A program made the position numbers and the translations under genes. The notes under the pieces were generated by a model that did not search any database, was not told the origin of the DNA, and was given only the letters and a program-made list of their open reading frames with translations. Of a DNA stretch of 64,000 nt, positions 17,187 to 63,229 are shown piece after piece; position 1 is the stretch's first letter; each line of letters begins with the position of its first letter. The stretch is taken from positions 576,001 through 640,000 of the forward strand of contig CP060223.1 in the NCBI GenBank assembly GCA_023898465.1, written 5' to 3'. The stretch is from Candidatus Nomurabacteria bacterium (lineage in GTDB: Bacteria; Patescibacteriota; Patescibacteriia; HK-STAS-PATE-3).

Positions 17187-19280
17187 CTACCCTCTTCCCC
17201 TAGACCGTCGCTGCTTCTTCTCCTCAAGCAAAATGTCGAGGACGCTTTTTGGCTCACCATCACTATCCATTTCAATGAAGAAATCATCAGGTGATCCCCG
17301 CTCCTCTGTCAGGGTCAGCTCTTCGTAGAGGTGCTCAGGCAGCTCGGTGATAAATGGAGACGGTCGCTGCATGTACATGGCAGTTGAGCGCATATTTACG
17401 CCGATGGAATAACTGAGGAAGAGATGCGTCTTAGCGCGAGTCACCGCAACATAGAAGAGGCGTCGCTCTTCTTCAATTCCACCCTCTTCTTTTAGGGCTC
17501 GAGGATTTGGAAAAGATCCATCATTGCAGCTGATAACAAAGACAACGTCCCACTCCAGACCTTTTGCCTGATGGATAGAGCTGACCACCATTGCCTCATC
17601 CTCACTTGCTGCGCCCGTTTCAGTGACCACGCCAAAAGATTCTTGCAAAGAAACTTCAGCTAAGAATTCGCTCAGCTTTTCATAGCGTTCAGCAAAACGA
17701 GCCAACTCAAGCAAGTCATCAATACGTTCATTCGCGTTAGGATAGGTCACCTGCAGATATTCCCGATACTCGCCTTTGGCTAATTCCTGAATCAAATCAT
17801 TTGGCGCTCGCTTCTCGTGCTGCAAAAGTTTCTTCAAGGTCTTTTGAAAACTGCGGAAACCCTCGCTGGAGCGTTGCGTTAAGGCTTTTTCGCAGGCAGC
17901 GCCGGCCAGCTCCTCAGCACTCGGCAGATCACTCAAACATTCGCGCCATAGCTTTACTCCGGTTTCCACCCCGATGCCGGGATAGAGCTGAATCACGCGT
18001 AAGAAAGCTACCTCATCGCGAGGATTATCAAGGAGTTTTAAGTAGGCTAACAAATCTTTAATATGCGCGCGTTCAAAAAAGCGCAAACCCCCGCGATAAT
18101 CATACGGGATATCCCGGCGTGTTAATTCAAATTCCAGCGACTGTGATTGATACGACGCGCGGAATAATACGGCGATGTTTTGCAAAGGAATCCCCTCTTC
18201 ACGGAACTCCAGGACACGCTGAGCAATGAATTCAGCCTCTTGTTCGCTGGAGCTGGCCGGCACAACCAAAGGCTTCACTACCCCGTGACGAATCGGATGG
18301 AGTGTTTTTTCAAACTGATCAGGGTTATGTCGGATCACATCATTCGCTACTTCTAATACCGGCTTGATCGAACGGTAATTTGTTTCTAGCTTAAAGGTTT
18401 GGCAATTAGGATACTGCTGCGGGAAATCTAAAATATTCTGCACCGTCGCCCCGCGAAAAGCGTAAATGCTCTGCGCGTCATCACCCACCACTAACAAATT
18501 CCCATGCACCGAAGCAAGTTGGCGTACAATTGATGACTGCAGACGATTTGTATCCTGGTACTCGTCGACCAAAACGTATTTGAATTGTGTGGCTAACTTT
18601 TCACGAATATCAGGCCGTGTCTGTAGGAGTTGATCCAGCAAGTAGAGCATGTCATCGAAATCTACCAGGTGATTTTTCTTTTTTCGCTTCACATACTGCT
18701 TCTGCACCGCCTCTAACTTATCCTCTAATTGGAGGAAGCTTGAAAAGCGCTTTTCTAATATATCGCGTAAATCGGACTGCGTATTAATGCAAAGACTGAG
18801 AATACTCTTCACCACAGCTGCCGAAGGAAATCGCTTACCCTTCGTATCAATACCCTCTTCTTTCACACACACATTGATGAGTGACTTAGCGTCCTCTTCA
18901 TCCAGGATAGTGAAATTAGGCGGGAAGCCAATTGCGTTCCCAAAACGGCGCAAAAGGATATTTGCAATGTGATGGAAAGTGCCGCCCCATAGGCCTTTCG
19001 GGTAAGCACCCAGCAACTCCTCCACTCGAGTCAACATTTCTCGTGAGGCTTTATTCGTAAAAGTAACTAAAAGGATGTTATCAGCCTTTACACCTTGCTC
19101 AAGAAGGTAAGCTACTCTATAGACAATAGTGCGGGTTTTGCCGGATCCAGCACCTGCTAACACCAAAACTGGCCCGTCCCCTCTCTGCACCACATCCAGC
19201 TGCTCCTGATTCAGCTCTTCTTTATAATTGACCTTCAAGGTACTCGGGTCTGTCGATTTGCGAATCACATATTCTGCCAT
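17187..19280 (-). CDS. uvrD: ATP-dependent DNA helicase, UvrD/PcrA/Rep family
   Basis: Walker A VLAGAGSGKTRT. DEYQDTN motif. 697 aa. UvrD-like C-terminal domain. Confidence 0.88.
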   Translation of the reverse strand: MAEYVIRKSTDPSTLKVNYKEELNQEQLDVVQRGDGPVLVLAGAGSGKTRTIVYRVAYLLEQGVKADNILLVTFTNKASREMLTRVEELLGAYPKGLWGGTFHHIANILLRRFGNAIGFPPNFTILDEEDAKSLINVCVKEEGIDTKGKRFPSAAVVKSILSLCINTQSDLRDILEKRFSSFLQLEDKLEAVQKQYVKRKKKNHLVDFDDMLYLLDQLLQTRPDIREKLATQFKYVLVDEYQDTNRLQSSIVRQLASVHGNLLVVGDDAQSIYAFRGATVQNILDFPQQYPNCQTFKLETNYRSIKPVLEVANDVIRHNPDQFEKTLHPIRHGVVKPLVVPASSSEQEAEFIAQRVLEFREEGIPLQNIAVLFRASYQSQSLEFELTRRDIPYDYRGGLRFFERAHIKDLLAYLKLLDNPRDEVAFLRVIQLYPGIGVETGVKLWRECLSDLPSAEELAGAACEKALTQRSSEGFRSFQKTLKKLLQHEKRAPNDLIQELAKGEYREYLQVTYPNANERIDDLLELARFAERYEKLSEFLAEVSLQESFGVVTETGAASEDEAMVVSSIHQAKGLEWDVVFVISCNDGSFPNPRALKEEGGIEEERRLFYVAVTRAKTHLFLSYSIGVNMRSTAMYMQRPSPFITELPEHLYEELTLTEERGSPDDFFIEMDSDGEPKSVLDILLEEKKQRRSRGRG

Positions 19281-19632
19281 AGCTCACGTATCCTAGCATA
19301 TCCCTATCTCAACAGAAAATAGAAAGGGGCAACTCCTCAGAGTCACCCCATGAATCTCAGCAGCGGCGACCGGATCCGTAATAGGATTCCTTTTCAGCTC
19401 GAGTCGCCTGGCGGCAATGATCGAAGGGGTGCAAACTGCACTCCAACCAGACACCTCAACTGCCAGTGAGTTGCATGGTCCCCTTGCAATCCTTGACCGG
19501 GCACTGATCACCCCTCTTCACTTCATCGAAGTTGGGCTTCCCTGCGTCCTCTTGAACAGCCGCGTTTCCCATGATCCCCTCCTCAGAACGTGAGTATTGA
19601 GAACAAGTGAACAAAAAAACACTAGCACGAGA

Positions 19633-19678
19633 TGAAAAAAAAGAAAAAGCCTCAGTGCAAACGCATGAGGCTTGGTAA
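19633..19678 (-). terminator. Intrinsic terminator (minus strand). Hairpin AGCCTCATGCGTTTGCACTGAGGCT followed by TTTTTCTTTTTTTT.
   Basis: Plus strand shows aaaaaaaagaaaaagcctcagtgcaaacgcatgaggct. Read on the minus strand the U-tract follows the 8-bp stem. Confidence 0.6.
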
Positions 19679-19679
19679 A

Positions 19680-20440
19680 GGTTTGACCCGGGACAGTGCG
19701 CACGCAAACGTGCTGCCAGGGACACCGCCCCGGGTCCGGGCGTGGCTCTCAGCCAAAAAAGGATCGTATACAGATCCTAGCGCGAGCGCTTCGTTAGGTC
19801 AAATAAAGAAAAAGGCCCCGTCACTACTACATTGGATGTGTAGCGTGACGGGGCCTGCGCCGGCGCGTAGGAGCGGCGGCGTGAATCGGCCTATCAGCGA
19901 ACCCGGCGGGCGTTTGCAGCGAGTGCTGTTCCCAATGGGTCGACCGCGGATGGCCGAAGTGTGCGGACCGGAGAGGGCGCGTCCCGGCGACAAAAAGTGT
20001 CGTCGAGGCGAAACCGACTAGCCGGTCGCGATGAATGTAATCAGAGATCAAGCCGTCAAAGGACGGTATGCTTCGTTCGAGCTGATGAGACCCTGCATCA
20101 GTGACAGGTGGTCACAACCGGGTCTTCCGATGAAAAGCTGTGACCATCGACTCCCACTTAGCGTTCACGCCGTTGATGCTGCGCATCATCATTGGTGCGC
20201 CGCTTCATGGGGCGAGTTAGGGCAGGACCGATGGTCCTACCCGCAAAGCTAGGTCGGATGTCCGTGGGTCATTCGTTCCTCCTTCTGCCCCTAACGCGTG
20301 TCAGGGGCGGGGTCCGCGCCGTCCGTCAGGCGCGTCGCCGGCCGTCGAGGGCGATCGTCGCGATGGTCGTCGTCGAATCGTAATAGGCGCTGCGGAGCGA
20401 AGTCGGGGGTCCATGGAGATTCATCTCGGACTCCTTTCGG
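19680..20440. other. GC-rich (about 60-65%) non-coding island with no credible ORF. Candidate structured ncRNA or degraded foreign DNA.
   Basis: Composition contrasts with the 45-48% GC neighbours. All ORFs here are short, overlapping and R/P/A-rich. Minus-strand terminator-like hairpins at 19814-19855 and 19761-19777 and a promoter-like TTGACC-17-TAGGAT (minus) at 19802-19774. Confidence 0.4.
19801..19855 (-). terminator. Intrinsic terminator (minus strand). GGCCCCGTCAC...GTGACGGGGCC followed by TTTTTCTTTATTT.
   Basis: 11-bp perfect stem read directly. The T-tract lies on the minus strand (plus-strand aaataaagaaaaa at 19801-19813). Confidence 0.6.
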
Positions 20441-20638
20441 TTCGCGGTGATATCGTCTGGCGACACCACCATCCACGTACTCTCTCAAACATCTCTGGTT
20501 GTTGAGGTGCAAGTTGGGTCGCTTCTCGCTAACCAACGGGAAGACACTAGCACAGCTCAAGAAATATGTCAACCCCAGGGGCTCAATAAATTTTCTGCAA
20601 ACAAAAATAAAATCAAAAAAGTCCAATAAAAAGCCCTC

Positions 20639-20666
20639 TTGACATTCGGTTTTTCTTCGGTATATC
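20639..20666 (+). promoter_or_regulatory. lexA promoter (TTGACA-16-TATATC) with the 16-mer TTCGGTTTTTCTTCGG occupying the spacer. Candidate LexA operator.
   Basis: cTTGACAtTTCGGTTTTTCTTCGGTATATCatagtcacATG. The identical 16-mer recurs at 21321-21336. Confidence 0.5.
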
Positions 20667-20674
20667 ATAGTCAC

Positions 20675-21301
20675 ATGACCGTTGTACTACCAAAGAAGAA
20701 ACAAGAGCTCCTGAAATACCTTCAGGAATATATTACTGAACATAGCTACGCCCCTACCCTGACCGAGATAGCGAAAAAGTTTGGCGTGTCCTCACTTGCT
20801 ACGATTCACGAGCATCTCGCCTTTTTAGAGGAGAACGGCTTTATCCGTCGTGATAAGCAACAAGCCCGTGGAATTACCCTGCTCAATCCAGAGGATAACG
20901 CTACGCAAAGTGAAAGCGCCTTGAATACAATAGAATTACCAATCGTTGGGGTTATCACCGCAGGTGCACCAATTGAGGCTATTGAGGATCGCGACCGCAC
21001 GCTTTCCGTCCCCCAGGAAATCGCTGGCCGTAAAAACGCCTATGTATTAAAGGTGCGCGGCGATTCTATGATTGAAAGTCTCATTGCTGACGGTGATTTC
21101 GTTGTTGTAGAAAAAACTGAATACGCAAAAGATGGTGACACTGTTGTAGCAATGCTAGAGGACGGCACCGCTACCTTAAAGAAATTCTTTAAGCATAAGA
21201 GCTATATTCGCCTACAACCAGCTAACAAGGCATATGCACCAATTAAAGTACCATCCGTAGTTATTCAAGGACGCGTACTTGGTGTCATGCGCAAAATGTA
21301 A
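20675..21301 (+). CDS. lexA: LexA repressor (S24 peptidase family)
   Basis: N-terminal wHTH (LTEIAKKFGVSSLATIHEHLAFLEENGFI). C-terminal S24 domain with GDSM (Ser nucleophile) and a later Lys. Start moved to the internal Met at 20675 because the promoter lies inside the longer annotated ORF. Confidence 0.85.
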   Translation: MTVVLPKKKQELLKYLQEYITEHSYAPTLTEIAKKFGVSSLATIHEHLAFLEENGFIRRDKQQARGITLLNPEDNATQSESALNTIELPIVGVITAGAPIEAIEDRDRTLSVPQEIAGRKNAYVLKVRGDSMIESLIADGDFVVVEKTEYAKDGDTVVAMLEDGTATLKKFFKHKSYIRLQPANKAYAPIKVPSVVIQGRVLGVMRKM

Positions 21302-21320
21302 TTTTTATTTATCTTTTATC

Positions 21321-21336
21321 TTCGGTTTTTCTTCGG
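21321..21336 (+). promoter_or_regulatory. Second copy of TTCGGTTTTTCTTCGG, 3 nt upstream of the Y-family polymerase start codon
   Basis: tatcTTCGGTTTTTCTTCGGcctATG. Exact 16/16 identity to the lexA promoter element. Confidence 0.45.
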
Positions 21337-21339
21337 CCT

Positions 21340-22527
21340 ATGAAACCCTCCCCTCTTATCAAGCGTTATATCCACGTCCGTTTAAATAGTTTTCTCGCTA
21401 GTATTGTTGAGAGAGAAAACCCCAAACTACAGGGTCGGCCTATTGTAATAAGCGAAATGCATAATAATGAAGAACGCGTGCTGAGTTGTAATATCCCAGC
21501 AAAAAAGCTAGGCATCCAAAAGGGCGATACAATTTTACAGGCAAAGAAGCGCTGTACTTGGGTGGCGGTATTTCCTAGTGACATTGAATTAGCAAAAACC
21601 TATGCGAAAGAGTTTATTGCCCTACTCTGTCGATTTTCCACTAAGGTCTATCCGCATAATCGTTTAGACGAAGCCTACATTGAGCTAGACGTCAGTGGAA
21701 TTGCTGCAAGCTCTCCAGAGGAGTTTGCGGCAACTATCCAGCGAAGCATTAAGGTACAACTTGGTTTAAATGCTAGCATTGGAATTGCACGCACTCGTTC
21801 GGTTGCCTGGAGCGCTGCACTGCATAAGCAGCCCGAAGGGATTACCAGTGTGCCTATTGGTAGTGAGCGCGCTTTTCTTTACCCTCTTCCACTTACTCAG
21901 CTCTACTCGCTGGGACAGCGCTCACGCGAATACCTCCTCTCGCATGGTATTCGGACTATTGGCCAACTAGCTGCTTGCTCCAGTAATTGGTTAGTGGAAC
22001 AGTTTGGCAGTGCAGGATATGAGCTACTTCAGTTAGGTCATGGCCAGGATATAAAAGAAGTGAAAACGCCAACTTTACAGAAGTCTATTTCGCGCTCACT
22101 TCGCTTCGAGGCTCCAACAAGTAATCCTGCATTAATTGAAACTACAGTAGCTCACTTAAGTGAAAAGGCTCTTCGTACGCTCCAAAAGCAGGGTCGACGT
22201 GCTGAGACCGTGGTGCTGCAAGTGACCGACATTTACGGTCGCTCACACCAAAGTCATGCAAAACTTTCTAGCTCACGAAACTCATTCCAAAAAGGACTTT
22301 ACAGTGTTTTTCGTCATCTTACCGCTCAGGTGAGCGCTATTCGTTCTATTGCCGTGCAGCTGCACACGTTGCTAGAAACACCGCAGGAGCAACCAAATCG
22401 TGTATGGCAAAGTCAGCCGGTACAATCAGCTATTTTAGGTCTAGAGTGGAGATCGGGTCAGCGGGCCAGAAAAGCAGCAAGATCAGGCAGCTTGGTGCAG
22501 TTACCACTACTCGGTATGAGCGCTTAG
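21340..22527 (+). CDS. Y-family DNA polymerase homolog (DinB/ImuB-like) lacking the first catalytic Asp motif
   Basis: N-terminus YIHVRLNSFLASIVERENPKLQGRPIVIS aligns to the DinB IHVDMDCFFAAVE...GKPVAV, but DMD is replaced by RLN. The second acidic motif is retained (LDEAYIELD). 395 aa. Confidence 0.65.
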   Translation: MKPSPLIKRYIHVRLNSFLASIVERENPKLQGRPIVISEMHNNEERVLSCNIPAKKLGIQKGDTILQAKKRCTWVAVFPSDIELAKTYAKEFIALLCRFSTKVYPHNRLDEAYIELDVSGIAASSPEEFAATIQRSIKVQLGLNASIGIARTRSVAWSAALHKQPEGITSVPIGSERAFLYPLPLTQLYSLGQRSREYLLSHGIRTIGQLAACSSNWLVEQFGSAGYELLQLGHGQDIKEVKTPTLQKSISRSLRFEAPTSNPALIETTVAHLSEKALRTLQKQGRRAETVVLQVTDIYGRSHQSHAKLSSSRNSFQKGLYSVFRHLTAQVSAIRSIAVQLHTLLETPQEQPNRVWQSQPVQSAILGLEWRSGQRARKAARSGSLVQLPLLGMSA

Positions 22528-25932: not shown

Positions 25933-26376
25933 TTACTTCAGAGTTACCTTAGCTCCGGCTTCTTCCAATTTCTTCTTCAGATCGTCAGCCTCTTCTTTGG
26001 TAGCACCTTCTTTGATCATCTTTGGTGCACCGTCGACGAGATCCTTGGCTTCTTTCAAGCCCTTCTGGGTCACTTCACGGACGACCTTGATGACAGCAAT
26101 CTTGTTGCCACCGGCTTCGGTCAACTCGACATCAAAGGAGGACTTCTCCTCTGCAGCACCGGCGTCTCCACCGGCAGCTGGCATACCAGCCATCATGACT
26201 GGAGCAGCTTGAGCTGATACTCCGAATTTATCTTCCAGCACTTTGACGAGCTCAGAGAGTTCAACCACGTTGAGCTTCTCGATTTGCTCGACCAATGCCT
26301 TAAACTTTTCTGGTACTTCAACAGCCTTGTCTTCCTTTGATTCCTCGGCTGCTGGTGTTGCGTTTTCTTCTGACAT
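25933..26376 (-). CDS. rplL: 50S ribosomal protein L7/L12
   Basis: [39 protein letters not shown]...[10 protein letters not shown] is a canonical L7/L12 C-terminal domain. Confidence 0.92.
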
Positions 26377-26410: not shown

Positions 26411-26938
26411 TTAAGCTGATTTTTGATCTTTGATTGCACTGAGGACAGTGACCAAACCGCGGATATTGCCTTGGAGTACATTGACGAATCCAGACAATGG
26501 AGCTTGGATCGTGCGAACCAATTGGCCAAGGAGCTGCTGCCGTGATGGCAACTTAGACAAGGCTTCAATTGATGCGGCATTGATAAGATTTCCTTCGAGG
26601 TAGCCGCCCAAGAATTGGACGCTCTCGTGCTCTTTACGGAAATCAGCCAAGGCTTTTGCGGTTTCCACTTCATCACCGAATCCAAAAGTGATACTGATCG
26701 GCTGGTTAATTTCCTCGATACCCAGCGTCTCGTGTCCCTTTTCACCAAACACCTTTTTTAATAAGGTCTTTTTGGCTACGTGATACTCTCCACCAACATC
26801 GTAAACTGCTTGACGAAGTTTTTGCTCATCTCCAACTTGGAGTCCAGAGAATGAGGTGAAAACGGCCAAACTTGCTCGGTCGAGCTGCTCACGCAATTCG
26901 GCTAAATCCTGCTCTTTTTTGGCTTTTGATTTGCTCAT
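26411..26938 (-). CDS. rplJ: 50S ribosomal protein L10
   Basis: Internal Met start MSKSKAKKEQDLAELREQLDRASLAVFTSFSGLQV is typical of L10. The annotated upstream extension is probably leader. Located immediately upstream of rplL. Confidence 0.85.
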   Translation of the reverse strand: MSKSKAKKEQDLAELREQLDRASLAVFTSFSGLQVGDEQKLRQAVYDVGGEYHVAKKTLLKKVFGEKGHETLGIEEINQPISITFGFGDEVETAKALADFRKEHESVQFLGGYLEGNLINAASIEALSKLPSRQQLLGQLVRTIQAPLSGFVNVLQGNIRGLVTVLSAIKDQKSA

Positions 26939-27112
26939 AGTGAGATAAGATGAATAAAGAAGCGGTCTTCCGAGACCGCCTGCACTTCCCCACATTTGGG
27001 GAGAAGATTGGCTACCTCGGTAAGGTGATGGTTGAATCCGCCCTAGAGCGGACCTTACGGTCTTTGGTAGATAAATTGTCAAAACCTAGACTAGCAATCT
27101 CTCCGTATACTG

Positions 27113-27811
27113 TCAAGTAAAAATGCGTGTACCATGAAATGCCTTACCCTGGAGGGCTAATTTTACCTGCTCTAAACGCTTCCCCTGCAAAATATCCACT
27201 TCTAAGCCGTGCTTTTGGGCCAAAGCACTTGCTCGAGGATCAAATGGCGAGCTTAAACGCGGTGTCCACTTCTTAGGGATTATTTTCCTATACTCTTTCC
27301 AGTTCACTTGCCCAAGCGCTTTTGCGTCCTTATACTTCTTGGGATCCTTGGTATACACATAGGGAATGTCGGACAAATTGAGAATACGAGTGGCCCCTAG
27401 AGCAATTGCCATCTGCACAGCATCCATATCTGTTGAATGCCCTGGGACATAGCCTCCCCCTAGGAGAATCGGCCGCAACATCTTTGGCGGCTTCTCAGGA
27501 TTATCAATGAGGGTGGTATTTGCGTATGCACCAAAAATGCTACGGAGAAGATGCGCATGTACCTTCGTCGTGGCAATACCTATCCAGTCCAGATCAACTG
27601 CTTTGACGGTGGCGAGCTTCCGAGCTGCTTCATTGTAACGTTTGTTTGTCTTCCCTCCCCCGGTAATAATAACAAAGCGCTGACCTTGCCGTACAAAGCT
27701 CAAAATCAATTGACGAAACTTTTTTAAAAACGTGACATCTATTTCATCAGGCACAATCAGTGACCCGCCTAGTGAAATAATGCTTACTGGTTGTGTGGGC
27801 TGTTTTTTCAT
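27113..27811 (-). CDS. pyrH: Amino-acid-kinase family protein, probably UMP kinase (archaeal-like form)
   Basis: ISLGGS, VIITGGG and TDMDAVQMAIALGA motifs of the carbamate/UMP kinase fold. Confidence 0.55.
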   Translation of the reverse strand: MKKQPTQPVSIISLGGSLIVPDEIDVTFLKKFRQLILSFVRQGQRFVIITGGGKTNKRYNEAARKLATVKAVDLDWIGIATTKVHAHLLRSIFGAYANTTLIDNPEKPPKMLRPILLGGGYVPGHSTDMDAVQMAIALGATRILNLSDIPYVYTKDPKKYKDAKALGQVNWKEYRKIIPKKWTPRLSSPFDPRASALAQKHGLEVDILQGKRLEQVKLALQGKAFHGTRIFT

Positions 27812-55216: not shown

Positions 55217-57294
55217 GCGACCAAGAACGTAAAACCCAAAACAGCGGAGCTAGCACCCAATCTGGTCGTCCTATGATGCGACCAATGGGTGGTGGCAACC
55301 CTATGGCAATGATGCAGGCCGCAGCGAAGCCAAAAAACTTCAAGCGGACTATGCGTCAACTCGCCACCTATCTTAAGCCGTATTGGAAAAAGATTATTCT
55401 GGTACTAGTCTTGGCCATGGCGAGCACGGTTTTCTTAATCGCTAGCCCAAAAATACTCGGGCGTATGACCAATCAAGTAGTGGATGATTTTGTAGATGTC
55501 ACTGTATATAAGCAGCTGGTGGCAAAACTCCCGGCCGGTACTACTTTCCCAGAAGGTACTACCGGGGCTGATGTGCTCGCCCAACTCCCTCCCGAAACTA
55601 TTGAAAGCATGCCTGATTTTGCGAAAAGCGCATTAGAAAAACTGGACTTATCACAGGCCCCAAGTTTTCACTATGACATACTGCGCAACATTGCGCTTGA
55701 ACTCATGATCCTCTACCTCTTAAGCGCGCTTTTTAGCTACATACAAGGATGGATTATTACCGACGTATCGCAGAAAGTTACTTATCAGTTTCGTCGCGAT
55801 ATTTCCACAAAGATTGGCCGGATGCCTTTACGCTATTTTGATAAAACAACTCATGGTGAAGTACTTAGTCGAGTAACGAATGATGTCGATACCGTGAGTC
55901 AAACTCTCAATCAATCATTAGCGCAAATTATTACCGCCGTCACAGCGCTGATTGGCATACTTATCATGATGTTCTCGATCAGTTGGGAAATGACTCTCGT
56001 GTCTTTAGTCACCCTGCCAATGAGTTTTGGATTGCTTCGCGTCATTGTTGTGCGCTCGCAGCGTTTCTTTAAGCAGCAGCAAGATACGCTTGGACATTTG
56101 AATGGACATATCGAGGAAATGTTTAGCGGCCACACCGTTATGAAAGTGTTTAATGGTCAGAAGCGTTCGGTGGCCAAATTCACTAAAAATAATGACGAGC
56201 TCTATGGGAGTGCCTGGAAGTCGCAATTCCTTTCTGGGCTCCTCTTCCCGCTTACCAACTTTGTCGGCAACTTGGGCTATGTTGGCGTGACCGTCGTTGG
56301 CGGCTATTTAGCTCTGCATGGTCGGGTGAACATTGGCGATATCCAGGCCTTTATCCAATACGTCAACCAATTCAATCAACCAATTATCCAAACCGCAAAT
56401 GCGGCAAATGTGCTGCAGTCCACAGCTGCTTCAGCTGAGCGGGTATTTGAATTCCTGGCTGAAGAAGAGCAGAGCCCTGAAGCTCATCTGGAGAAAAAAG
56501 TATCGCAGGTCACCGGATCGGTCGAGTTTGAAGATGTAGTTTTTGGCTACACTCCAGGGCAAACGATTATTAAGAATTTCACTGCGCATATCAAAGCTGG
56601 TCAACGGGTAGCCATCGTAGGTCCGACCGGTGCAGGTAAAACCACCATCGTGAACTTGCTTATGCGCTTCTATAATGTAGACAGTGGGACTATTAAAATT
56701 GATGGAATCGACACACGCACAATGTCGCGCGCTGAAGTCCGAGAGCTCTTTGGTATGGTATTACAAGACACTTGGCTCTTCCATGGCACGATTAGAGAAA
56801 ACCTCCTCTACGGCAAGCCACAGGCAAGTGAAGAAGAGCTCATCGAAGCTGCGAAGGCCGCGCATGTTGATCACTTCATCCACTCACTCCCCCATGGCTA
56901 TGACATGGTACTTGATGAAGAGGCGAATAATATCTCGCAAGGTGAAAAACAATTACTCACCATTGCACGAGCAATGCTCATTAAATCACCAATGTTGATA
57001 TTAGATGAGGCGACCAGCTCGGTTGATACTCGCACCGAGATCCTTATTCAAAAGGCTATGGATCGACTGATGCATGCAAAGACAAGCTTCATTATCGCCC
57101 ATCGTCTGTCCACTATTAAGAATGCTGACCTCATCTTAGTCATGCGTGATGGTAATATTGTTGAGCAAGGCAAGCACGAGGAACTGCTCAAGCAGCAAGG
57201 CTTCTACGCCTCTCTCTACAACAGTCAGTTCGTGGCACCACTGATCGAAGAAGCAGAGCCCGTCACTCAAAAGCTGCATTCAGTCCCGGCCTAG
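55213..57294 (+). CDS. ABC exporter, fused permease-ATPase, subunit 2, with Met/Gly/Pro-rich N-terminal extension
   Basis: Walker A GPTGAGKTT, signature ISQGEKQLLTIARA, Walker B LILDEATSSVD. 4-bp overlap with subunit 1. Confidence 0.88.
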   Translation: MSDQERKTQNSGASTQSGRPMMRPMGGGNPMAMMQAAAKPKNFKRTMRQLATYLKPYWKKIILVLVLAMASTVFLIASPKILGRMTNQVVDDFVDVTVYKQLVAKLPAGTTFPEGTTGADVLAQLPPETIESMPDFAKSALEKLDLSQAPSFHYDILRNIALELMILYLLSALFSYIQGWIITDVSQKVTYQFRRDISTKIGRMPLRYFDKTTHGEVLSRVTNDVDTVSQTLNQSLAQIITAVTALIGILIMMFSISWEMTLVSLVTLPMSFGLLRVIVVRSQRFFKQQQDTLGHLNGHIEEMFSGHTVMKVFNGQKRSVAKFTKNNDELYGSAWKSQFLSGLLFPLTNFVGNLGYVGVTVVGGYLALHGRVNIGDIQAFIQYVNQFNQPIIQTANAANVLQSTAASAERVFEFLAEEEQSPEAHLEKKVSQVTGSVEFEDVVFGYTPGQTIIKNFTAHIKAGQRVAIVGPTGAGKTTIVNLLMRFYNVDSGTIKIDGIDTRTMSRAEVRELFGMVLQDTWLFHGTIRENLLYGKPQASEEELIEAAKAAHVDHFIHSLPHGYDMVLDEEANNISQGEKQLLTIARAMLIKSPMLILDEATSSVDTRTEILIQKAMDRLMHAKTSFIIAHRLSTIKNADLILVMRDGNIVEQGKHEELLKQQGFYASLYNSQFVAPLIEEAEPVTQKLHSVPA

Positions 57295-57905
57295 GCTCTC
57301 CCTTGTAGTCCAATGAGAGTGAGATAAGTGAGTAGTGATGCGATATTAGCTAAAAAGGTAATGAGGCCCCACTTAGCCCACTTCTGCTGGGACTTTTTAA
57401 AATCTTCCACACTTGCCCATCGATTTGCCTTCCATGCCATTTCATTTCCTTTGATACCCATAACTATCCACCATACATAATTAATCAATGGGATGTATGC
57501 AAAAAAACCAAACCAAACTCGATATGCGATGCTCCATGCCGGAGTAAGAAATGCGGCTGCCCAATTCCATCCTTTTACTTCTTCTGGCACTTGAGCTAAC
57601 TCATCCCCTGAACGAGCGTCATACCCCGACAAAACCACTTTCTCTTTCCGACGAAAATATACAACACAAACTATGACACCAACTATGGTGGCAGGCACCA
57701 TTAAAAGTATAAGCACGCTAAGTGTCAATTGAATTGGCACAAGTATATCCTCTCTGTCTTGTAAGAGGTACACTGTTACGCTCCAAATAAAAATTAAAAC
57801 AGCTACTAAAAGTTGTGGAATAAAAAATGCTAAAGCGCCCTTTACACGATTTCGATAAGGTACTTCTATATACTCTTGTGCTTTTGTGGTTTTTCTTTCA
57901 GCCAT
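57291..57905 (-). CDS. Hypothetical polytopic membrane protein
   Basis: Four predicted TM helices. Last gene of a 4-gene minus-strand membrane-protein operon. Confidence 0.4.
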   Translation of the reverse strand: MAERKTTKAQEYIEVPYRNRVKGALAFFIPQLLVAVLIFIWSVTVYLLQDREDILVPIQLTLSVLILLMVPATIVGVIVCVVYFRRKEKVVLSGYDARSGDELAQVPEEVKGWNWAAAFLTPAWSIAYRVWFGFFAYIPLINYVWWIVMGIKGNEMAWKANRWASVEDFKKSQQKWAKWGLITFLANIASLLTYLTLIGLQGRA

Positions 57906-57916
57906 GAATATTCAAC

Positions 57917-58114
57917 CTAAAAATAACGACTGGCGATTTTGTAGCCAGCCCAAATACCGAGTATACCACCTATCCCACTAAACACAGTCGCGGTAAACGA
58001 AAGCCAACTTACTCCCCAAAGTCCGGGAATGGCGCCGCCAATCGTCGTACCCAGGATCGCACCGATCATGACAAAGGGTTTTTTATTCACTGTATTCCTA
58101 GTTAATAAACTCAC
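57917..58114 (-). CDS. Small glycine-zipper membrane protein (65 aa)
   Basis: GAILGTTIGGAIPGLWG and GIGGILGIWAG glycine-zipper helices. Confidence 0.4.
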   Translation of the reverse strand: MSLLTRNTVNKKPFVMIGAILGTTIGGAIPGLWGVSWLSFTATVFSGIGGILGIWAGYKIASRYF

Positions 58115-58862
58115 TGAGTTCCTGCTCCCCTCCTAGTGGGGTCACCATAGCGGGCAGAGAACCAAGTAGATAGGCCGCGTTATCAGTGTATTGCAAATCA
58201 TCAATACGGAAACCAGGAACTGCAGCAATCTCTCGATTAAGCACGTCTTGAGCAGCTTCTTCGATTTGATTATAGTATTTCTCTGGCACAGTCAGACGGC
58301 CAACTTTGGCTTTTTGTAAATTCAAGGAAACCGATTGAGTGCCAGTGCGCGTTACGTCTACATCAACATAGACCGGTGCTTTGATATAGGGCGAAACAAA
58401 AGCGGAAATCTCCATGCCGCCTTCGCGAAAGCGAACTTGAATGTCACGGACAAAACGCCCATCGCCATGATAGTGTTGAATAAAAGCTGTCACCTCTTCG
58501 GAACTATGTTCATCGTCAATGGCCACCTGACCCGCAAAGCTTTTATTTTGTGACCAATAAAATGTACCTGGCTCAGCCTCAATCATCATCGGATTATCCG
58601 CTAAGGCACTGGCTAAATCGGCTTCGGTAGGATGGACCCCTAAATCAATCGGCTTATCAGAGCCAAAGAGTTGTGTCAGACCTGGGATATGCCATACGCC
58701 TGAATACCCTAGGGCCAGGAGAGGCAATATTATCAATACCACCACGAGAGTCACGAGCGTCCATCGTAAGCGATGACGCTTTGGTTTAGGTAGTGATTCC
58801 TGATGCTCGCCCTGTGGCAGCTCATGTGCAGGATTGAGATCAGCTTTTACTTCATTTGGCAT
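58098..58862 (-). CDS. Membrane-anchored protein with extracytoplasmic domain, hypothetical
   Basis: N-terminal TM LVTLVVVLIILPLLALGY followed by a roughly 200 aa domain. Confidence 0.4.
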   Translation of the reverse strand: MPNEVKADLNPAHELPQGEHQESLPKPKRHRLRWTLVTLVVVLIILPLLALGYSGVWHIPGLTQLFGSDKPIDLGVHPTEADLASALADNPMMIEAEPGTFYWSQNKSFAGQVAIDDEHSSEEVTAFIQHYHGDGRFVRDIQVRFREGGMEISAFVSPYIKAPVYVDVDVTRTGTQSVSLNLQKAKVGRLTVPEKYYNQIEEAAQDVLNREIAAVPGFRIDDLQYTDNAAYLLGSLPAMVTPLGGEQELSEFIN

Positions 58863-58931
58863 ACTCGTTTAGTAAATTCTAAGACCTCCTTAGGTATTGT
58901 GCCCTGAGAGGCTCCTTTGGTCAATTCTCTC

Positions 58932-59297
58932 CTAGGTGAATAAAAATCGCAGGACCAACAATAGCGCCCCAAGTACACATAACACCGCCCAATTGCGAAA
59001 ACCGTAAGGAGCGTATCGCTTGCCAGCCACTAATTCAAATAATGTCTTTTCATCACCGTAGCGAGCGTGCACAACCCCCAAGGGACAATTTCCATGATTC
59101 AACATCACAATAATCCACTGCCCTGCAAGTAGGGCTATACTGGCAATCGTCCATAAATTAAGCGCCCGGAAAAGACCTGAGTACCAAAGATACCCAGTGG
59201 CTAAAGTCATGCTTATGCCAATAATAAAATGACCAAAGCGCACCACATATACCATTCGCTGATAAGGCTTTGCGGACGACACTGTATTCATATACAT
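58932..59297 (-). CDS. Small membrane protein (possibly DUF2784-like)
   Basis: Three TM helices and an HGNCPLG motif. First gene downstream of RNA element A. Confidence 0.4.
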   Translation of the reverse strand: MYMNTVSSAKPYQRMVYVVRFGHFIIGISMTLATGYLWYSGLFRALNLWTIASIALLAGQWIIVMLNHGNCPLGVVHARYGDEKTLFELVAGKRYAPYGFRNWAVLCVLGALLLVLRFLFT

Positions 59298-59299
59298 AT

Positions 59300-59494
59300 C
59301 CTAGCACAAAGCAGGATGCAAACGCCGAAGACTTGGGCCCGAAGGGTTAAGTCTTCTAGGGGGCCCCGCTGCAAACCAAGGACCTCGAGCCTGCCGAGAG
59401 GGACTGTTTGCAGTGGGGAAAAGGGACATCCTTGCAAAGGGCGCAGTGAAGACAATTTGTTGTCGTCACGGAGCCCACAGCAAGTGATGGCCCG
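59300..59494 (-). ncRNA. Conserved structured RNA element, copy A. Immediately 3' of tRNA-Trp and 5' of a membrane-protein operon.
   Basis: Shares blocks with copy B (60221-60456). Conserved core ATGTCCCTTT..AAACAGTC.CT.TCG.CAGGCTCGAG.TCCTTGGTTT and 3' motif CCCAAGTCTTCGGCGTTTGCA. Stems differ by compensatory changes (CUGCAAAC/GUUUGCAG here, UUUGAAAC/GUUUCAAA in B). Confidence 0.5.
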
Positions 59495-59568
59495 TGGCAG
59501 GGGCGGAAGGTGTCGAACCCTCGTTACCGGTTTTGGAGACCGGTGTTCTACCGTTGAACTACGCCCCC
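59495..59568 (-). tRNA. tRNA-Trp (anticodon CCA), CCA encoded
   Basis: Reverse complement GGGGGCGTAGTTCAACGGTAGAACACCGGTCTCCAAAACCGGTAACGAGGGTTCGACACCTTCCGCCCCTGCCA. Anticodon loop CUCCAAA. Confidence 0.9.
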
Positions 59569-59592
59569 ACAGATTCGTAGAATCAATGAAGA

Positions 59593-59748
59593 CTATTTTG
59601 TCTCTTTATGGAGAGTATGCTTTTTGCACCACTTACAGTGCTTTTTCATCTCAAGTCGACCTTTGAGGGTCTTCTTGTTTTTGAAGCTGTGATAGTTGGT
59701 GCGCTTGCACACCGTGCATTCCAGCTTAATAAGATTATCTTGGGACAT
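59593..59748 (-). CDS. rpmG: 50S ribosomal protein L33
   Basis: [51 protein letters not shown] matches the L33 pattern (C-x2-C...C-x2-C, KETK end). Absent from the supplied ORF track because it is 51 aa. Confidence 0.85.
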
Positions 59749-59787
59749 AGCAGTATATTATTTATGCGTATATTCTTGCCGACCGCC

Positions 59788-59863
59788 TGGAGCCGATGGT
59801 CGGATTCGAACCGACGACCTTCACTTTACAAAAGTGTTGCTCTACCAACTGAGCTACATCGGC
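59788..59863 (-). tRNA. tRNA-Thr (anticodon UGU), CCA encoded
   Basis: Reverse complement GCCGATGTAGCTCAGTTGGTAGAGCAACACTTTTGTAAAGTGAAGGTCGTCGGTTCGAATCCGACCATCGGCTCCA. Confidence 0.88.
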
Positions 59864-59880
59864 GCCCGGCGCTTGGCAAG

Positions 59881-60189
59881 TTATGAAAGCTCTAAGCGAG
59901 GAAAAATATCGATGGCTGGTTCTTCATAAGGGTGCGCCTGCTTCAACGCTATTATTACCTCCTCTACTTTTTCCTTATGACAGAGCATGCGAATCACTTC
60001 CTCTTCCACAATCTCTTCCTGACCAATCTCCCCTATGGCAGGATGCGCTCCCTCTTGCGGGATGAAACGTCCAGTAGTGCGATAGCTTCCACTACAGTGT
60101 GAATAGTTGCCCATCTTCCCTGCGCCAGCATCACCCATTGCCTTACGAACTGCATCAGCTTGGGGCACTGGCACCGAGGTGCGAATCAT
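59881..60189 (-). CDS. Hypothetical small protein (about 103 aa), occupying the position where tuf sits in the conserved Thr-Tyr-(Gly)-Thr-tuf-rpmG-Trp-secE arrangement
   Basis: MIRTSVPVPQADAVRKAMGDAGAGKMGNY...HPYEEPAIDIFPRLE. Start chosen at the internal Met because the longer ORF N-terminus is encoded by RNA element B. Confidence 0.4.
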   Translation of the reverse strand: MIRTSVPVPQADAVRKAMGDAGAGKMGNYSHCSGSYRTTGRFIPQEGAHPAIGEIGQEEIVEEEVIRMLCHKEKVEEVIIALKQAHPYEEPAIDIFPRLELS

Positions 60190-60220
60190 AACGTATTCTG
60201 ATTCTTGAAGTGACATAAGG

Positions 60221-60456
60221 AATAGAGTGCAAACGCCGAAGACTTGGGATTTTTGGGGCTCCATTTGAAACCAAGGATCTCGAGCCTGTCGAAAGAGACT
60301 GTTTCAAATGAGGAAAGGGACATGCGCCGTAAGGGCTTTCAAACGCCGAGCGCTTGGGCCGACAGGTTAAGTGCGAGGCGTAAAGGCACACGCTGGCAAA
60401 GGGTGGAGTGTTCTCGTTTTAACGAGGACACGCAACCCGCAGCCAGCGATGGGCCG
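60221..60456 (-). ncRNA. Conserved structured RNA element, copy B. Immediately 3' of tRNA-Tyr and 5' of the small hypothetical gene.
   Basis: See copy A. Contains an extra roughly 45-nt insertion carrying a third copy of the CCCAAG..TCGGCGTTTG motif. Small hairpin CUCGUU-AAAA-CGAG covaries with GACAA-CAAA-UUGUC in A. Confidence 0.5.
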
Positions 60457-60543
60457 TGGTGGGCCGGGTAGGATTCGAACCTACGAAGGCGCAAGGCCAG
60501 CAGATTTACAGTCTGCCCCCGTTGACCGCTTGGGTACCGACCC
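60457..60543 (-). tRNA. tRNA-Tyr (anticodon GUA) with long variable arm, CCA encoded
   Basis: Reverse complement GGGTCGGTACCCAAGCGGTCAACGGGGGCAGACTGTAAATCTGCTGGCCTTGCGCCTTCGTAGGTTCGAATCCTACCCGGCCCACCA. Confidence 0.9.
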
Positions 60544-60571
60544 TCATGTGAGGAAATGATCTCACCACTCC

Positions 60572-60647
60572 TGGAGCCGATGAGCGGATTTGAACCGCTG
60601 ACCTACTCCTTACCATGGAGTTGCTCTACCAACTGAGCTACATCGGC
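60572..60647 (-). tRNA. tRNA-Thr (anticodon GGU), CCA encoded
   Basis: Reverse complement GCCGATGTAGCTCAGTTGGTAGAGCAACTCCATGGTAAGGAGTAGGTCAGCGGTTCAAATCCGCTCATCGGCTCCA. 5' half identical to the other tRNA-Thr. Confidence 0.88.
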
Positions 60648-60694: not shown

Positions 60695-61552
60695 CTACAG
60701 TGCTTTTACCTGCTCATCAAATTCACTAAGGCGCTGATTTTCCGGATTCACTTCCTTAAGCTTATCAAAGACTCGTATAGCGAGTAGCTTCTTCTTTGCC
60801 TCAATGGCTAGCTCAAGCGTGCCGTGAAGAAACTTAGGATTATTTGGCATGAGCTCCAAAGCGCTTTCGCAACTATCTACCGCATCATCGTACTCACCCA
60901 AGCCTCGTTGTGCCATGCAAAGATCGTAACGGAGTTCGGCCATTTCTGAGCTGTAACCACCGATGTTTTGACTTGGCTGACCATTTGGCTGCTGAACACC
61001 TTTTACCTGATAGGTACGCTGAGCTAAATCAAGCGCATGACGGAAAACATCTCTGGCTTGTGCGTGCTCTTTCATTCGCAGATACACATCACCGAGAATT
61101 CGATACGCATCAATACTCTTCGGCTCAATCGCGATAGCTTCGATACAGCGCTGCTCAGCCTCACTATATTGCTCGTTCTTACTTAGGCTTTCCGCTTCTT
61201 CGATGAGTAAGACCACTTTACGCTGCGCTTCAGCTCGCTCACTTGGAGATCGCTCTGAGTGCGCTCGCTGGCGATACTGTCGTTCAATGGATTGTAAACG
61301 GGCGTAGAAACTTCGAGCCGCTCCCCTACCTCGATTCACTAGACCATGCAATCTTCCAATAGTCTTTTCATGCACTCCATCAAGTTTACGCTGCAAGCGG
61401 CGCTCGATCAGATCAAGCTTACGCTGTGTCTCCTGCTCACTCTTAATCTTACGCGTATCAATCGATGTGAGGCTCGGAAGCTTTCGAAACAGTACCACCG
61501 CAATGACGGCGATACCGGCAACGATCAGGATAATGAGTGCGATGTCGAGCAC
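60695..61552 (-). CDS. Membrane-anchored TPR-repeat protein
   Basis: N-terminal TM IALIILIVAGIAVIAVVLF. Coiled-coil region. Several TPR-like repeats (AIAIEPKSIDAYRILGDVYLRMKEHAQA...). Confidence 0.55.
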   Translation of the reverse strand: MLDIALIILIVAGIAVIAVVLFRKLPSLTSIDTRKIKSEQETQRKLDLIERRLQRKLDGVHEKTIGRLHGLVNRGRGAARSFYARLQSIERQYRQRAHSERSPSERAEAQRKVVLLIEEAESLSKNEQYSEAEQRCIEAIAIEPKSIDAYRILGDVYLRMKEHAQARDVFRHALDLAQRTYQVKGVQQPNGQPSQNIGGYSSEMAELRYDLCMAQRGLGEYDDAVDSCESALELMPNNPKFLHGTLELAIEAKKKLLAIRVFDKLKEVNPENQRLSEFDEQVKAL

Positions 61553-61562
61553 GTGGGTAGGA

Positions 61563-62144
61563 TTATAACTCGAAACGAATGAAGCGACCTATTTGAATAT
61601 TTTCCCCAAACTTTGTAACCGCTTCAGCAACGTATTCCTCAACCGTCTTGCTATCGTCCATAATGAGAGGCTGCTTCATGAAACAGATTTCACTATAGAA
61701 ACGGGCAAGCTTTCCATCAATAATCTTCTGCACAATCTGCTCTGGCTTACCTTCAATATCTTTTGAAGTAGCAGCCAATTCGCGCTCCCTTGCTACCAAA
61801 TCCTCTGGAGCATCCTCTGGTCGTAAACACTGTGGGTTAGCAGCTGCGATGTGCATTGCCAGCTCATACGCAAAACGTTGGAAATCATCAGTCCGTGAAA
61901 CAAAATCTGTTTCGCAGCTTACCTCAACCATGGCGCCAATTCGCTTATTTGCATGAATGTAAGAAGCAACCACACCTTCTTTTGTCTCGCGTCCCTGCTT
62001 TTTCACAGCTCGGGCCTGTCCCTTCTTGCGGAGAACGAGTAAGGCAGCCTCATAATCATCTTTAGCTTCCGTTAAAGCTTCTTTTGCTTCAACTACACCG
62101 GCGCCGGTTTCTTCTCGTAATTTTTTAATGAGTGCTAAGTCCAT
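61563..62144 (-). CDS. tsf: Elongation factor Ts (short form)
   Basis: N-terminal UBA-like LIKKLREETGAGVVEAKEAL, then the EF-Ts dimerisation core. Downstream of rpsB as usual. Confidence 0.88.
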   Translation of the reverse strand: MDLALIKKLREETGAGVVEAKEALTEAKDDYEAALLVLRKKGQARAVKKQGRETKEGVVASYIHANKRIGAMVEVSCETDFVSRTDDFQRFAYELAMHIAAANPQCLRPEDAPEDLVARERELAATSKDIEGKPEQIVQKIIDGKLARFYSEICFMKQPLIMDDSKTVEEYVAEAVTKFGENIQIGRFIRFEL

Positions 62145-62161
62145 GAATACGTACCTAGAGA

Positions 62162-62950
62162 TTAATTATCGTTGGAGCTATCCTTTTGCTTATCCTCTAC
62201 TTCGGCAGCTGCCTCTTCCTTCGCAGCCTCCGCTTTCTTCTCTTTGGTTTCGCTTACCTGGATATCAGCCTTTTGCTTACCAGAGAGGATTTCATCAGTC
62301 ATGACACTGAGGATAAGATCAAGCGCTTTGGTGGCGTCATCATTTGAAGGAATCGGATACGTAACGCCCTTAGGGTTTACATTAGTATCGACTATGGCGA
62401 TTACCGGAATGCCGACCTTCAAAGCTTCTTTCATGGCGGTGCGCTCTTGCTTCACATCAACGATGAAGACTGCGGCTGGCAAGGCATCAAGCGTGCTGAT
62501 ACCACCTACGAGACCTTCTAAACGTTCCAGCTCTTCTTTGAAGCCTAATTGCTCGCGCTTGGTATAACGGCCTAGCTGACCGCCTTCTACTTCTGATTTC
62601 AACTTCTTATATTTGGCAATCACGCGGCTAACAGTTGGGAAATTGGTGAAAGTTCCACCAATCCAACGATTCGTCACATAAGGCATGCCTACGCGTTGCG
62701 CTTCACGCTCTACAATTGCCTTGGCTTGTCGCTTGGTACCAATGTAAAGGACCTTGCCTCCCTTGGCTGCTAACTCACCAGCAAAATTGGCGGCTCGCTC
62801 CAAACGCTCCTTGGTCTGCTCGAGATCAAGGATATAAATGCCATTTCGAGCAGCAAAAATGAATGGTTTCATTTTTGGATGCCAACGGCTGACCTGGTGG
62901 CCAAAGTGTACACCAGCTTTCAATAACTCTGAGAGGGTAACTTCTCGCAT
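62162..62950 (-). CDS. rpsB: 30S ribosomal protein S2
   Basis: LLKAGVHFGHQVSRWHPKMKPFIF is the canonical S2 N-terminus. Start set at the second Met. Confidence 0.9.
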   Translation of the reverse strand: MREVTLSELLKAGVHFGHQVSRWHPKMKPFIFAARNGIYILDLEQTKERLERAANFAGELAAKGGKVLYIGTKRQAKAIVEREAQRVGMPYVTNRWIGGTFTNFPTVSRVIAKYKKLKSEVEGGQLGRYTKREQLGFKEELERLEGLVGGISTLDALPAAVFIVDVKQERTAMKEALKVGIPVIAIVDTNVNPKGVTYPIPSNDDATKALDLILSVMTDEILSGKQKADIQVSETKEKKAEAAKEEAAAEVEDKQKDSSNDN

Positions 62951-63229
62951 ATTGTTTCCTTTCATCCTATCTGGATAGTTCTCTCAATGACTATCTCAGT
63001 AGGTCCACTATCGACCTAGCGGCTGGGACCTCGGCATGAGGCAGGATCCAGTCGACAGTCTTAGCTGGGTGGCTAAAGGGTCGATATGAGTGATAAATAA
63101 CGAATAAATGAACGGTGTAGACTCTACCATAGAAGCAAAAATCCCGCAAGGGTGGCTCAGGGGCTTCTGGAGACTTGCAAAGTATTCCCTATTCTGCTAA
63201 GCTTAGCCACGCTTTTCCTAAGAAATGCT

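Follow-up and report, generated by a model that had tools for sequence, protein, structure and literature searches.

A tRNA-rpmG gene order shared within one Patescibacteria family, with a stand-alone PII-like domain and two structured non-coding elements at tRNA 3' ends

We analyzed a 64,000-nucleotide (nt) stretch of a Candidatus Nomurabacteria genome (assembly GCA_023898465.1, contig CP060223.1, positions 576,001 to 640,000; hereafter the window, whose own numbering is used for positions below). It contains a minus-strand cluster in which rpsB, tsf and a gene for a TPR protein are followed by tRNA-Thr(GGU), tRNA-Tyr, a small open reading frame (ORF) designated ORF111, tRNA-Thr(UGU), rpmG and tRNA-Trp. 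In all likelihood this gene order is typical of, and inherited within, one family of Patescibacteria and does not reflect a recent replacement, a conclusion that goes together with the identification of ORF111 as a stand-alone NIF3-insert domain. What varies among the relatives is what has been inserted beside or inside the tRNA genes, and the additions of the window are two paralogous non-coding mosaic elements, one following tRNA-Trp (element A) and one following tRNA-Tyr (element B).

To find relatives, we used contigs that encode homologues of ORF111 and of the TPR protein upstream. The order rpsB-tsf-TPR-tRNA-Thr(GGU)-tRNA-Tyr-ORF-tRNA-Thr(UGU)-rpmG-tRNA-Trp recurred in three other genomes: GCA_964637345.1 (L004), GCA_043800725.1 (L093), which has an HD-domain gene inserted between rpmG and tRNA-Trp, and an organism represented by four JGI contigs (L007-L010). 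Where the sequence was recovered (L004 and L093), rpmE was located on the opposite strand, upstream of rpsB. Parts of the cluster were also present on short contigs of two closer relatives, tRNA-Tyr through rpmG only in L011 (from JGI) and rpsB through tRNA-Tyr only in L092. A more distant Patescibacterium, GCA_028714495.1 (L006), had the ORF, tRNA-Thr(UGU) and rpmG, then a 139-amino-acid (aa) reading frame and tRNA-Trp, with quite different upstream genes. A previous reading of the locus from the sequence only had viewed it as a peculiar rearrangement; because the same order is found in relatives, the arrangement is instead typical of the lineage. The order is inherited and not simply shared by near-identical strains: the TPR proteins of L004, L007 and L093 are only 51-58% identical to that of the window at the aa level (80% in L092); the ORF111 homologues of the family relatives are 67-76% identical. 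Genes 3' of tRNA-Trp differed in every genome compared, and none resembled nusG or rplK. EF-Tu, NusG and L11 were not detected in any Patescibacterial locus, including within 8-10 kb in these relatives, a search that did not cover secE. The association with tuf and with secE-nusG would have been lost before the family diversified, and nothing in the window would have replaced these genes. By itself, the synteny matters little, as erosion of the tuf-rpmG-secE neighbourhood is a known phenomenon and in this case appears to be older than the family.

Within the window, ARAGORN, Rfam and Pfam agreed with the previously proposed minus-strand order, tRNA-Thr(GGU)-tRNA-Tyr-element B-ORF-tRNA-Thr(UGU)-rpmG-tRNA-Trp-element A-membrane protein genes. 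Upstream of the tRNA cluster are rpsB (62162-62965), tsf (61563-62144) and the TPR protein gene (60695-61552), all on the minus strand like the remainder of the block. They are followed by tRNA-Thr(GGU) (60572-60647; ARAGORN and Rfam tRNA model, 72.2 bits), tRNA-Tyr(GUA) (60457-60543; both methods, 55.3 bits), element B, which is the whole 240-nt spacer between the CCA end of tRNA-Tyr and the start codon of ORF111 (60217-60456), ORF111 itself (59881-60216, 111 aa), tRNA-Thr(UGU) (59788-59863; both methods, 73.6 bits), rpmG for ribosomal protein L33 (59593-59748, 51 aa; Pfam PF00471, Ribosomal_L33, E 1e-18), tRNA-Trp(CCA) (59495-59568; both methods, 65.3 bits) and element A, the whole 197-nt spacer between the CCA end of tRNA-Trp and the next ORF (59298-59494). 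Four ORFs of 121, 254, 65 and 204 aa, taken from the ORF list and with hydrophobic segments recognized by eye, complete the block (57291-59297). They occupy the canonical position of secE-nusG, and none had a Pfam family above cut-off. The first of them, a putative membrane protein gene, probably starts at its second ATG (59291; 119 aa, MNTV...), because a near-identical homologue has 119 aa and an AGGA sequence lies 7-8 nt 5' of that ATG. From rpsB through the 204-aa ORF, all genes are on one strand in a 5.7-kb block, with spacers of at most 47 nt except for element B, element A and one gap of 69 nt. Around tRNA-Thr(UGU) there is an inverted repeat of 24 nt (arms 59775-59798 and 59857-59880, 83% complementary), which begins right after the ORF111 stop codon and lengthens the acceptor stem by approximately 13-17 nt per side.

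As the sequence-only reading implied, the locus derives from the ancient tRNA(Thr-Tyr-Gly-Thr)-tufB / rpmG-tRNA-Trp-secE cluster. The canonical order, tRNA-Thr-Tyr-Gly-Thr-tufB and rpmG-tRNA-Trp-secE-nusG-rplKAJL, was reconstructed for Proteobacteria and Firmicutes, and the four tRNAs of the tufB operon were described as highly variable (PMC8046335). The window retains tRNA-Thr, tRNA-Tyr, tRNA-Thr, rpmG and tRNA-Trp in this order, on one strand and near rpsB and tsf, and keeps the canonical rpmG-tRNA-Trp adjacency with a gap of 24 nt. However, it has neither tRNA-Gly nor tuf, nusG or rplK-rplA, and secE was not recognized; the PII-like-domain gene ORF111 lies between tRNA-Tyr and the second tRNA-Thr, and rplJ-rplL are 33 kb distant, behind pyrH. 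tblastn searches of the window with E. coli EF-Tu, NusG, L11 and L1 gave no match. SecE queries from B. subtilis and T. maritima also gave none, although SecE is too short and divergent for secE to be excluded in this way. No tRNA-Gly was called by ARAGORN, and no tRNA-like remnant was detected in the 240-nt gap with Rfam at E values up to 10; the possibility that element B is a decayed tRNA-Gly was rejected on this basis. The earlier claim that tuf, tRNA-Gly and secE-nusG are missing is thus borne out within the window for tRNA-Gly, tuf and nusG but is too strong for secE. Element B is indeed located in the glyT slot, as had been proposed, but ORF111 is located there too, and the tuf slot, previously assigned to the small ORF, is in fact the empty 39-nt spacer between tRNA-Thr(UGU) and rpmG. 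The observation that rplJ-rplL lie elsewhere was correct: rplL is at 25933-26376 and rplJ within 26411-27082, and the genes in front of them are pyrH, mltG and one for a sugar-nucleotide transferase instead of rplK-rplA.

ORF111 is a conserved small protein that, by sequence comparison, is a stand-alone NIF3-insert domain (COG3323, IPR015867, PII-like/CutA1-like). Its product is 100% identical to H6760_03175 from a Candidatus Nomurabacteria metagenome-assembled genome, which was built from the read sets SRR12358676 and SRR7638773. The frame had previously been read as an unrelated hypothetical protein of 103 aa (59881-60189). It is real and ends at 59881, but the ATG at 60216 (111 aa) is a more probable start codon than the one at 60189, because homologues begin with MLKESDYVKI and have approximately 110 aa; from the upstream ATG it reads MSLQESEYVMIRT, and the protein starts with MSLQESEYV. 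Far from being unrelated to known families, it has 1187 homologues at E <= 1e-3, and the best matches that carry a source name are all from Patescibacteria. Residues 5-97 align with residues 167-259 of PDB 2gx8, a NIF3-related protein of B. cereus (E 1e-25), and a match was also obtained with residues 138-232 of 2nyd, S. aureus SA1388 (E 4.5e-8). The matched region corresponds to the PII-like domain inserted in NIF3/YqfO proteins (PMC1779786), and stand-alone inserted domains with an HPYE motif have been described as separate subgroups of the DUF34 superfamily (PMC8469502). With approximately 100-110 aa, an end-to-end alignment and an HPYEE motif conserved without exception in an alignment of 24 homologues that includes the window protein, ORF111 resembles this NIF3/YqfO (DUF34) insert domain. 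It differs from NIF3/DUF34 proper (PF01784) in that the NIF3 core and the dinuclear metal site are absent and only the insert is present; consistently, the 111-aa protein had no NIF3 match in Pfam. Membership in CutA1 was rejected, as the scores were 14.7 bits against a cut-off of 22.4 (Pfam PF03091) and 16.5 against 120 (NCBIfam NF041095). The suggestion that the ORF might prove to be a tuf fragment was also rejected: there was no EF-Tu tblastn match at 59881-60264 and no GTP_EFTU match in Pfam.

The position of this gene next to a tRNA-Thr gene is not limited to the family. Among the approximately 30 Patescibacterial loci on which these counts rest, a homologue of ORF111 was followed within approximately 100 nt by tRNA-Thr(CGU) in L005, L012, L013, L016, L030 and L055. 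Because the ORF and tRNA-Thr(CGU) are adjacent in these other Patescibacteria, the pair is an old, recurrent Patescibacterial unit. Its frequent placement directly upstream of tRNA-Thr in Patescibacteria is not among the features reported in the available parts of PMC8469502 and PMC1779786. A small hypothetical ORF thereby gains an identity and a recurrent link with tRNA-Thr in Patescibacteria, which might offer a starting point for functional studies of the stand-alone NIF3-insert domains, so far unexplained.

Homology between elements A and B is evident (73% column identity), and each folded better than all of 200 shuffled sequences (z-scores of -3.9 for A and -3.8 for B). Both are mosaics of three modules, designated SL1, SL2 and SL3. 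In element A, SL1 (59423-59494), SL2 (59364-59418) and SL3 (59327-59356) are followed by a tail (59298-59326). Element B contains SL1 (60385-60456), an SL3-like module found by motif search (60336-60375; CUUAACC-hairpin-CCCAAG...UCGGCGUUUG), an extra 3' half of SL1, SL2 (60259-60313) and a partial SL3; all these modules are on the minus strand. The constant part, SL1, is an irregular hairpin of 72 nt, and its start lies one nucleotide past the CCA encoded at the tRNA 3' end. The SL2 stem covaries between the elements (CUGCAAAC/GUUUGCAG in A and UUUGAAAC/GUUUCAAA in B) around a conserved AGUC...UCCUUG internal loop. SL3, the CUUAACC-hairpin-CCCAAG module with its following sequence, is present in A and B and twice in L093. 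An Alifold analysis of the five SL1 copies found in three genomes gave 27 pairs, with 96% of cells paired and compensatory changes in 16 of the 27; none of 500 shuffles was as good, and slid partners paired at 40-53%. G-U pairs occupied seven cells, including one position that is G-U in three of the five copies, which slightly favours RNA on the tRNA strand. With R1, a covariance model of SL1, element A scored 95.6 bits and element B 95.8 bits.

The elements are non-coding, because the short ORFs that overlap them (42 and 45 aa, both beginning with MSL) are out of frame with each other owing to an indel and the L011 copy has no ATG; a coding role was rejected on these grounds. Searches against Rfam 15, riboswitches included, returned only tRNAs at the gathering score and nothing credible at E values up to 10 between 58800 and 60800, and the relatives' loci had no Rfam match to the elements either. 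When scanned for intrinsic terminators (a G+C-rich hairpin plus at least 5 U in 8 nt), SL1 proved to be followed by only 3-4 U (CCCUUUUCC and GCCUUUAC); the one candidate flagged by the scan was the small hairpin inside SL2 of element A, and shuffled sequences gave as many. Pairing of the conserved tail sequence GCGUUUGCA with the 5' strand of SL2 was considered by eye and dropped, as it works in A but is not supported by the covarying SL2 of B. We thus have a covariation-backed RNA structure that is absent from Rfam, always fused to a tRNA 3' end and narrowly distributed.

Among the relatives, L011 has an SL1 after tRNA-Tyr, and L093 has one after tRNA-Thr(GGU) and another after its ancestral tRNA-Tyr. 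In each of the five copies SL1 immediately follows CCA, with an exact junction. The copy between tRNA-Tyr and the ORF keeps its position in the window, L011 and L093 at 56-70% nt identity, with the structure preserved. A search with R1 of the window and 464 kb of Patescibacterial loci found only the five known copies, two of them in the window, and none behind tRNA-Pro, the fifth tRNA gene of the window, or behind the second tRNA-Trp gene of L093. In the DNA examined, the elements are therefore not a high-copy repeat, because there are two in 64 kb and none beyond the five. The exact pattern CAGGCTCGAGNTCCTTGGTTT had no match in genome or metagenome contig collections, a weak negative since the metagenome set evidently omits short contigs. 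A two-gap pattern, CCCTTTN{8,12}AAACAGTCN{5,25}TCCTTGGTTT, which matches A, B and the L011 copy, had no match in viral contigs or in the metagenome set, where the negative is again weak because the JGI contig L011 was itself not recovered by the scan. A phage origin was rejected after blastn against a phage collection gave no match. In L095, a strain-level relative whose 119-aa membrane protein is 98% identical, element A was approximately 97% identical; most changes were in loops or neutral for pairing, one basal pair of SL2 was broken and several changes fell in the 3' tail. Comparison of L095 1-110 with window 59495-59604 showed another allele of tRNA-Trp in L095, whose 5' flank is unrelated to that of the window, with the breakpoint exactly between CCA and CGGGCC. 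The window and L092 likewise carry different acceptor-stem types of tRNA-Tyr. tRNA alleles seem to have been swapped between close relatives.

The relatives also revealed unusual tRNA genes in this cluster. In L004, L007, L011 and L093, several intact tRNAs are nested inside an older gene of the same identity and are enclosed by a closing stem of 10-13 bp (L004 8346-8560 and 8783-9048; L007 ~2741-2975 and ~3831-4082; L011 ~731-934; L093 9158-9795). The inverted repeat around tRNA-Thr(UGU) in the window resembles these closing stems. In the two clearest cases, the exons of the outer gene are 94-96% identical to the corresponding window tRNA: the outer tRNA-Trp of L004 is identical to that of the window at 71 of 74 positions and has, at its anticodon, an insert of 178 nt that contains a different tRNA-Trp, and the outer tRNA-Tyr of L093 is identical at 82 of 87 positions and has four precise interruptions, in the D-loop, after position 25, at anticodon position 34/35 and in the T-loop after GTTC. 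The insert after position 25 consists of a GIY-YIG-like ORF (recognized by eye) and an intact tRNA-Tyr. With the four inserts removed in silico, ARAGORN called the outer gene as tRNA-Tyr by its own cloverleaf criteria. GC-rich hairpin units recurred at such sites, with the form TCCCGC...GCGGGA, often paired with CCACCGC...GCGGGG, and also CCCCGGACTNNGATCCGGGG (L004 7570-7603; L007 2919-2974; L093 9196-9231 and 9722-9775). In the disrupted tRNAs they are inserted in the D-loop, at anticodon position 34/35 or 35/36, or in the T-loop right after GTTC; neither the TCCCGC...GCGGGA inserts nor CCCGGACTNNGATCCGGG occurred in the window. The outer genes could be pseudogenes that invading tRNA cassettes have replaced; otherwise they are multi-intron tRNAs. 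In related genomes the cluster emerges as a hotspot where tRNA genes are replaced or receive insertions, which affects the annotation of tRNAs in Patescibacteria.

Small GIY-YIG-like ORFs were seen by eye in L004 (~7618-7860) and L093 (~9301-9540), flanked by partial duplicates or exons of tRNA-Tyr and adjacent to the intact inner copy of this tRNA. SegB of phage T4 is a GIY-YIG homing endonuclease located in a phage tRNA gene cluster (PMC2330249). The ORFs of L004 and L093 are similar to this case in lying in the tRNA-Tyr region beside duplicated or replaced tRNA sequence, but here the loci are bacterial-chromosomal, the insertion carries a complete replacement tRNA nested in the old gene, and the endonuclease is putative. 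A further sign of insertions in the cluster is a 480-nt AT-rich insert between tRNA-Thr(UGU) and rpmG of L093, with a 35-aa ORF (10400-10507) that has a weak match to 23S_rRNA_IVP, a four-helix-bundle, intervening-sequence protein family. A recent survey of Patescibacterial tRNA introns describes group I introns at position 35/36 (PMC13011429); a text search of it gave nothing on nesting, duplication, pseudogenes or hairpins.

What might the elements do? We tentatively favour a role of SL1 as a processing or stability element of a tRNA-mRNA co-transcript, although we consider it about equally likely that the elements are selfish DNA. The 5.7-kb block would be transcribed as tRNA-mRNA co-transcripts, which would be cut by tRNA-processing enzymes. 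We infer co-transcription because the genes are on one strand with short spacers of 17-47 nt and no sigma-70-like promoter was predicted on the minus strand between 59300 and 60900 by a scan whose E. coli-type consensus may not fit Patescibacteria. Processing of the tRNA 3' end would leave SL1 at the new 5' end of the downstream RNA, where it could serve as a processing determinant, as a 5'-terminal stabilizing hairpin or both, possibly also as an RNase III-type site, and it would not be a ligand sensor. A function at the RNA level is supported by the conserved position between tRNA-Tyr and the ORF, the exact CCA junction, the low copy number and, slightly, the G-U pairs. The structure makes tRNA-mRNA co-processing open to testing in organisms whose RNA-decay machinery is reduced.

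Several observations weigh against this proposal. Both co-transcription and processing are deductions, the former depending in part on the promoter scan with its possibly unsuitable consensus, and a stable hairpin abutting CCA could hinder exonucleolytic maturation of the tRNA 3' end. The element is dispensable, because L004 and L007, with the same gene order, carry the same ORF with no element and with only 25-36 nt between tRNA-Tyr and the ORF. One of the L093 copies precedes not a housekeeping mRNA but a disrupted tRNA-Tyr gene and a GIY-YIG-like ORF. Element B and the L011 copy contain extra half-SL1s, and the SL1 after tRNA-Trp of the window is 84% identical at the nt level to that after tRNA-Thr(GGU) of L093, while rpmG is 72% identical; this mosaic make-up and the 84% identity at non-orthologous sites point to duplication or transfer of the elements, as in selfish DNA. 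Finally, both the element count and the searches for tuf, secE, nusG and tRNA-Gly cover 64 kb of a 1.08-Mb genome, in which more copies may exist.

The elements could instead be selfish, non-autonomous DNA, hairpin mosaic repeats that insert or recombine at tRNA 3' ends, persist through a mechanism acting on DNA and have no host function, and we regard this as a possibility on a par with the processing role. The modules are shuffled and partly duplicated, closely similar copies stand behind different tRNAs, and presence or absence varies among relatives. The relatives' locus is a hotspot for GIY-YIG-like ORFs, small hairpin insertions and tRNA replacement, and hairpins recognized as DNA would show compensatory changes too. 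This explanation must nevertheless accommodate the presence of only two copies in 64 kb, with none behind tRNA-Pro or the second tRNA-Trp of L093; the lack of a visible transposase, integrase or target-site duplication beside the elements; the tRNA-Tyr/ORF copy, which keeps its position and structure in three genomes down to 56% nt identity; and the G-U pairs, which slightly favour RNA on the tRNA strand.

It is less likely that the elements are cis-regulatory 5' leaders, riboswitch-like or protein-binding, that control translation or transcription of the next gene. Each window copy does end at the start codon of the next gene, a leader shared by two different operons is the usual riboswitch pattern, and the L093 copy before the ORF can pair CCCCUUUCC with a GGGGGAG Shine-Dalgarno-like sequence. 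However, the copies precede genes that are not related to one another (one for a PII-like domain, one for a membrane protein without a known family and one for a tRNA), and copy 1 of L093 does not directly precede a protein gene. The modules are optional and shuffled, so that there is no fixed multi-helix core of the aptamer kind. Neither a terminator nor a sequestering hairpin is shared by all copies, and no Rfam family matched even at E 10. The predicted pairing in L093 (9868-9925) involves the pyrimidine tract after SL1 and extends SL3; GGGGGAG lies 7 nt before the AUG, and element B of the window has no equivalent Shine-Dalgarno sequence. The narrower idea that element A is a leader tied to the 121-aa membrane protein gene was rejected, as the gene for a 71% identical homologue (P0147) has kinase, DUF885 and PrcB_C genes as neighbours and, judged from protein genes only, is outside any tRNA-rpmG cluster. 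Very unlikely is the sequence-only proposal that tuf, tRNA-Gly and secE-nusG were replaced here and that the RNA elements took over regulatory roles: the canonical order is documented (PMC8046335), the window does depart from it, the elements are real and structured and they adjoin two of the vacated positions, but the same order without tuf and nusG occurs in L004 and L007, which have no elements, ORF111 is in the glyT slot and the tuf slot is empty, the ORF-tRNA-Thr pairing is widespread in Patescibacteria, one L093 copy stands before a tRNA gene, and nothing indicates regulatory activity.

Known intercistronic processing and stabilizing hairpins include the RNase III sites of phage T7, 5'-terminal stabilizer hairpins (ompA) and tRNA 3' external transcribed spacers (3'ETS-leuZ). 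Like such structures, SL1 is long and irregular, has conserved bulges and separates cistrons of what is probably a polycistronic transcript; its start is 1 nt away from the end expected from tRNA 3' processing. In contrast to them, the elements are modular, share no sequence similarity with them, are known here from sequence alone and are confined to one tRNA cluster in three genomes plus the L095 variant. Another comparison is with REP/BIME mosaic repeats, which are likewise built of hairpin modules that may be present, absent or duplicated in each copy. Unlike these, the elements are found in two copies in 64 kb, always abut a tRNA CCA and have a much longer, 72-nt hairpin, and no RAYT-type transposase was seen by them.

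A bolder and rather doubtful interpretation combines the elements with the nested genes. SL1 and its modules would represent a new tRNA-anchored RNA class, with a 5' end generated by tRNA 3' processing, that steers the downstream transcript, within an undescribed system of tRNA-gene turnover in this family in which cassettes with a replacement tRNA could invade tRNA genes and hairpin units could insert precisely at set positions of the D-, anticodon and T-loops. In its most extreme version, multiply interrupted outer tRNAs, such as tRNA-Tyr of L093, could be functional and spliced, that is, bacterial multi-intron tRNAs.

Two further observations were made elsewhere in the window. The UMP kinase gene directly upstream of rplJ (27113-27811) scored 149.9 bits with the archaeal pyrH model TIGR02076, whose cut-off is 158, versus 38.8 bits with the bacterial model. 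In addition, genes for a UvrD-like helicase, a LexA-type repressor (LexA_DNA_bind and Peptidase_S24 domains) and a Y-family polymerase (IMS) are close together at 17187-22527, which looks like an SOS-type module in a Patescibacterial genome of approximately 1 Mb.

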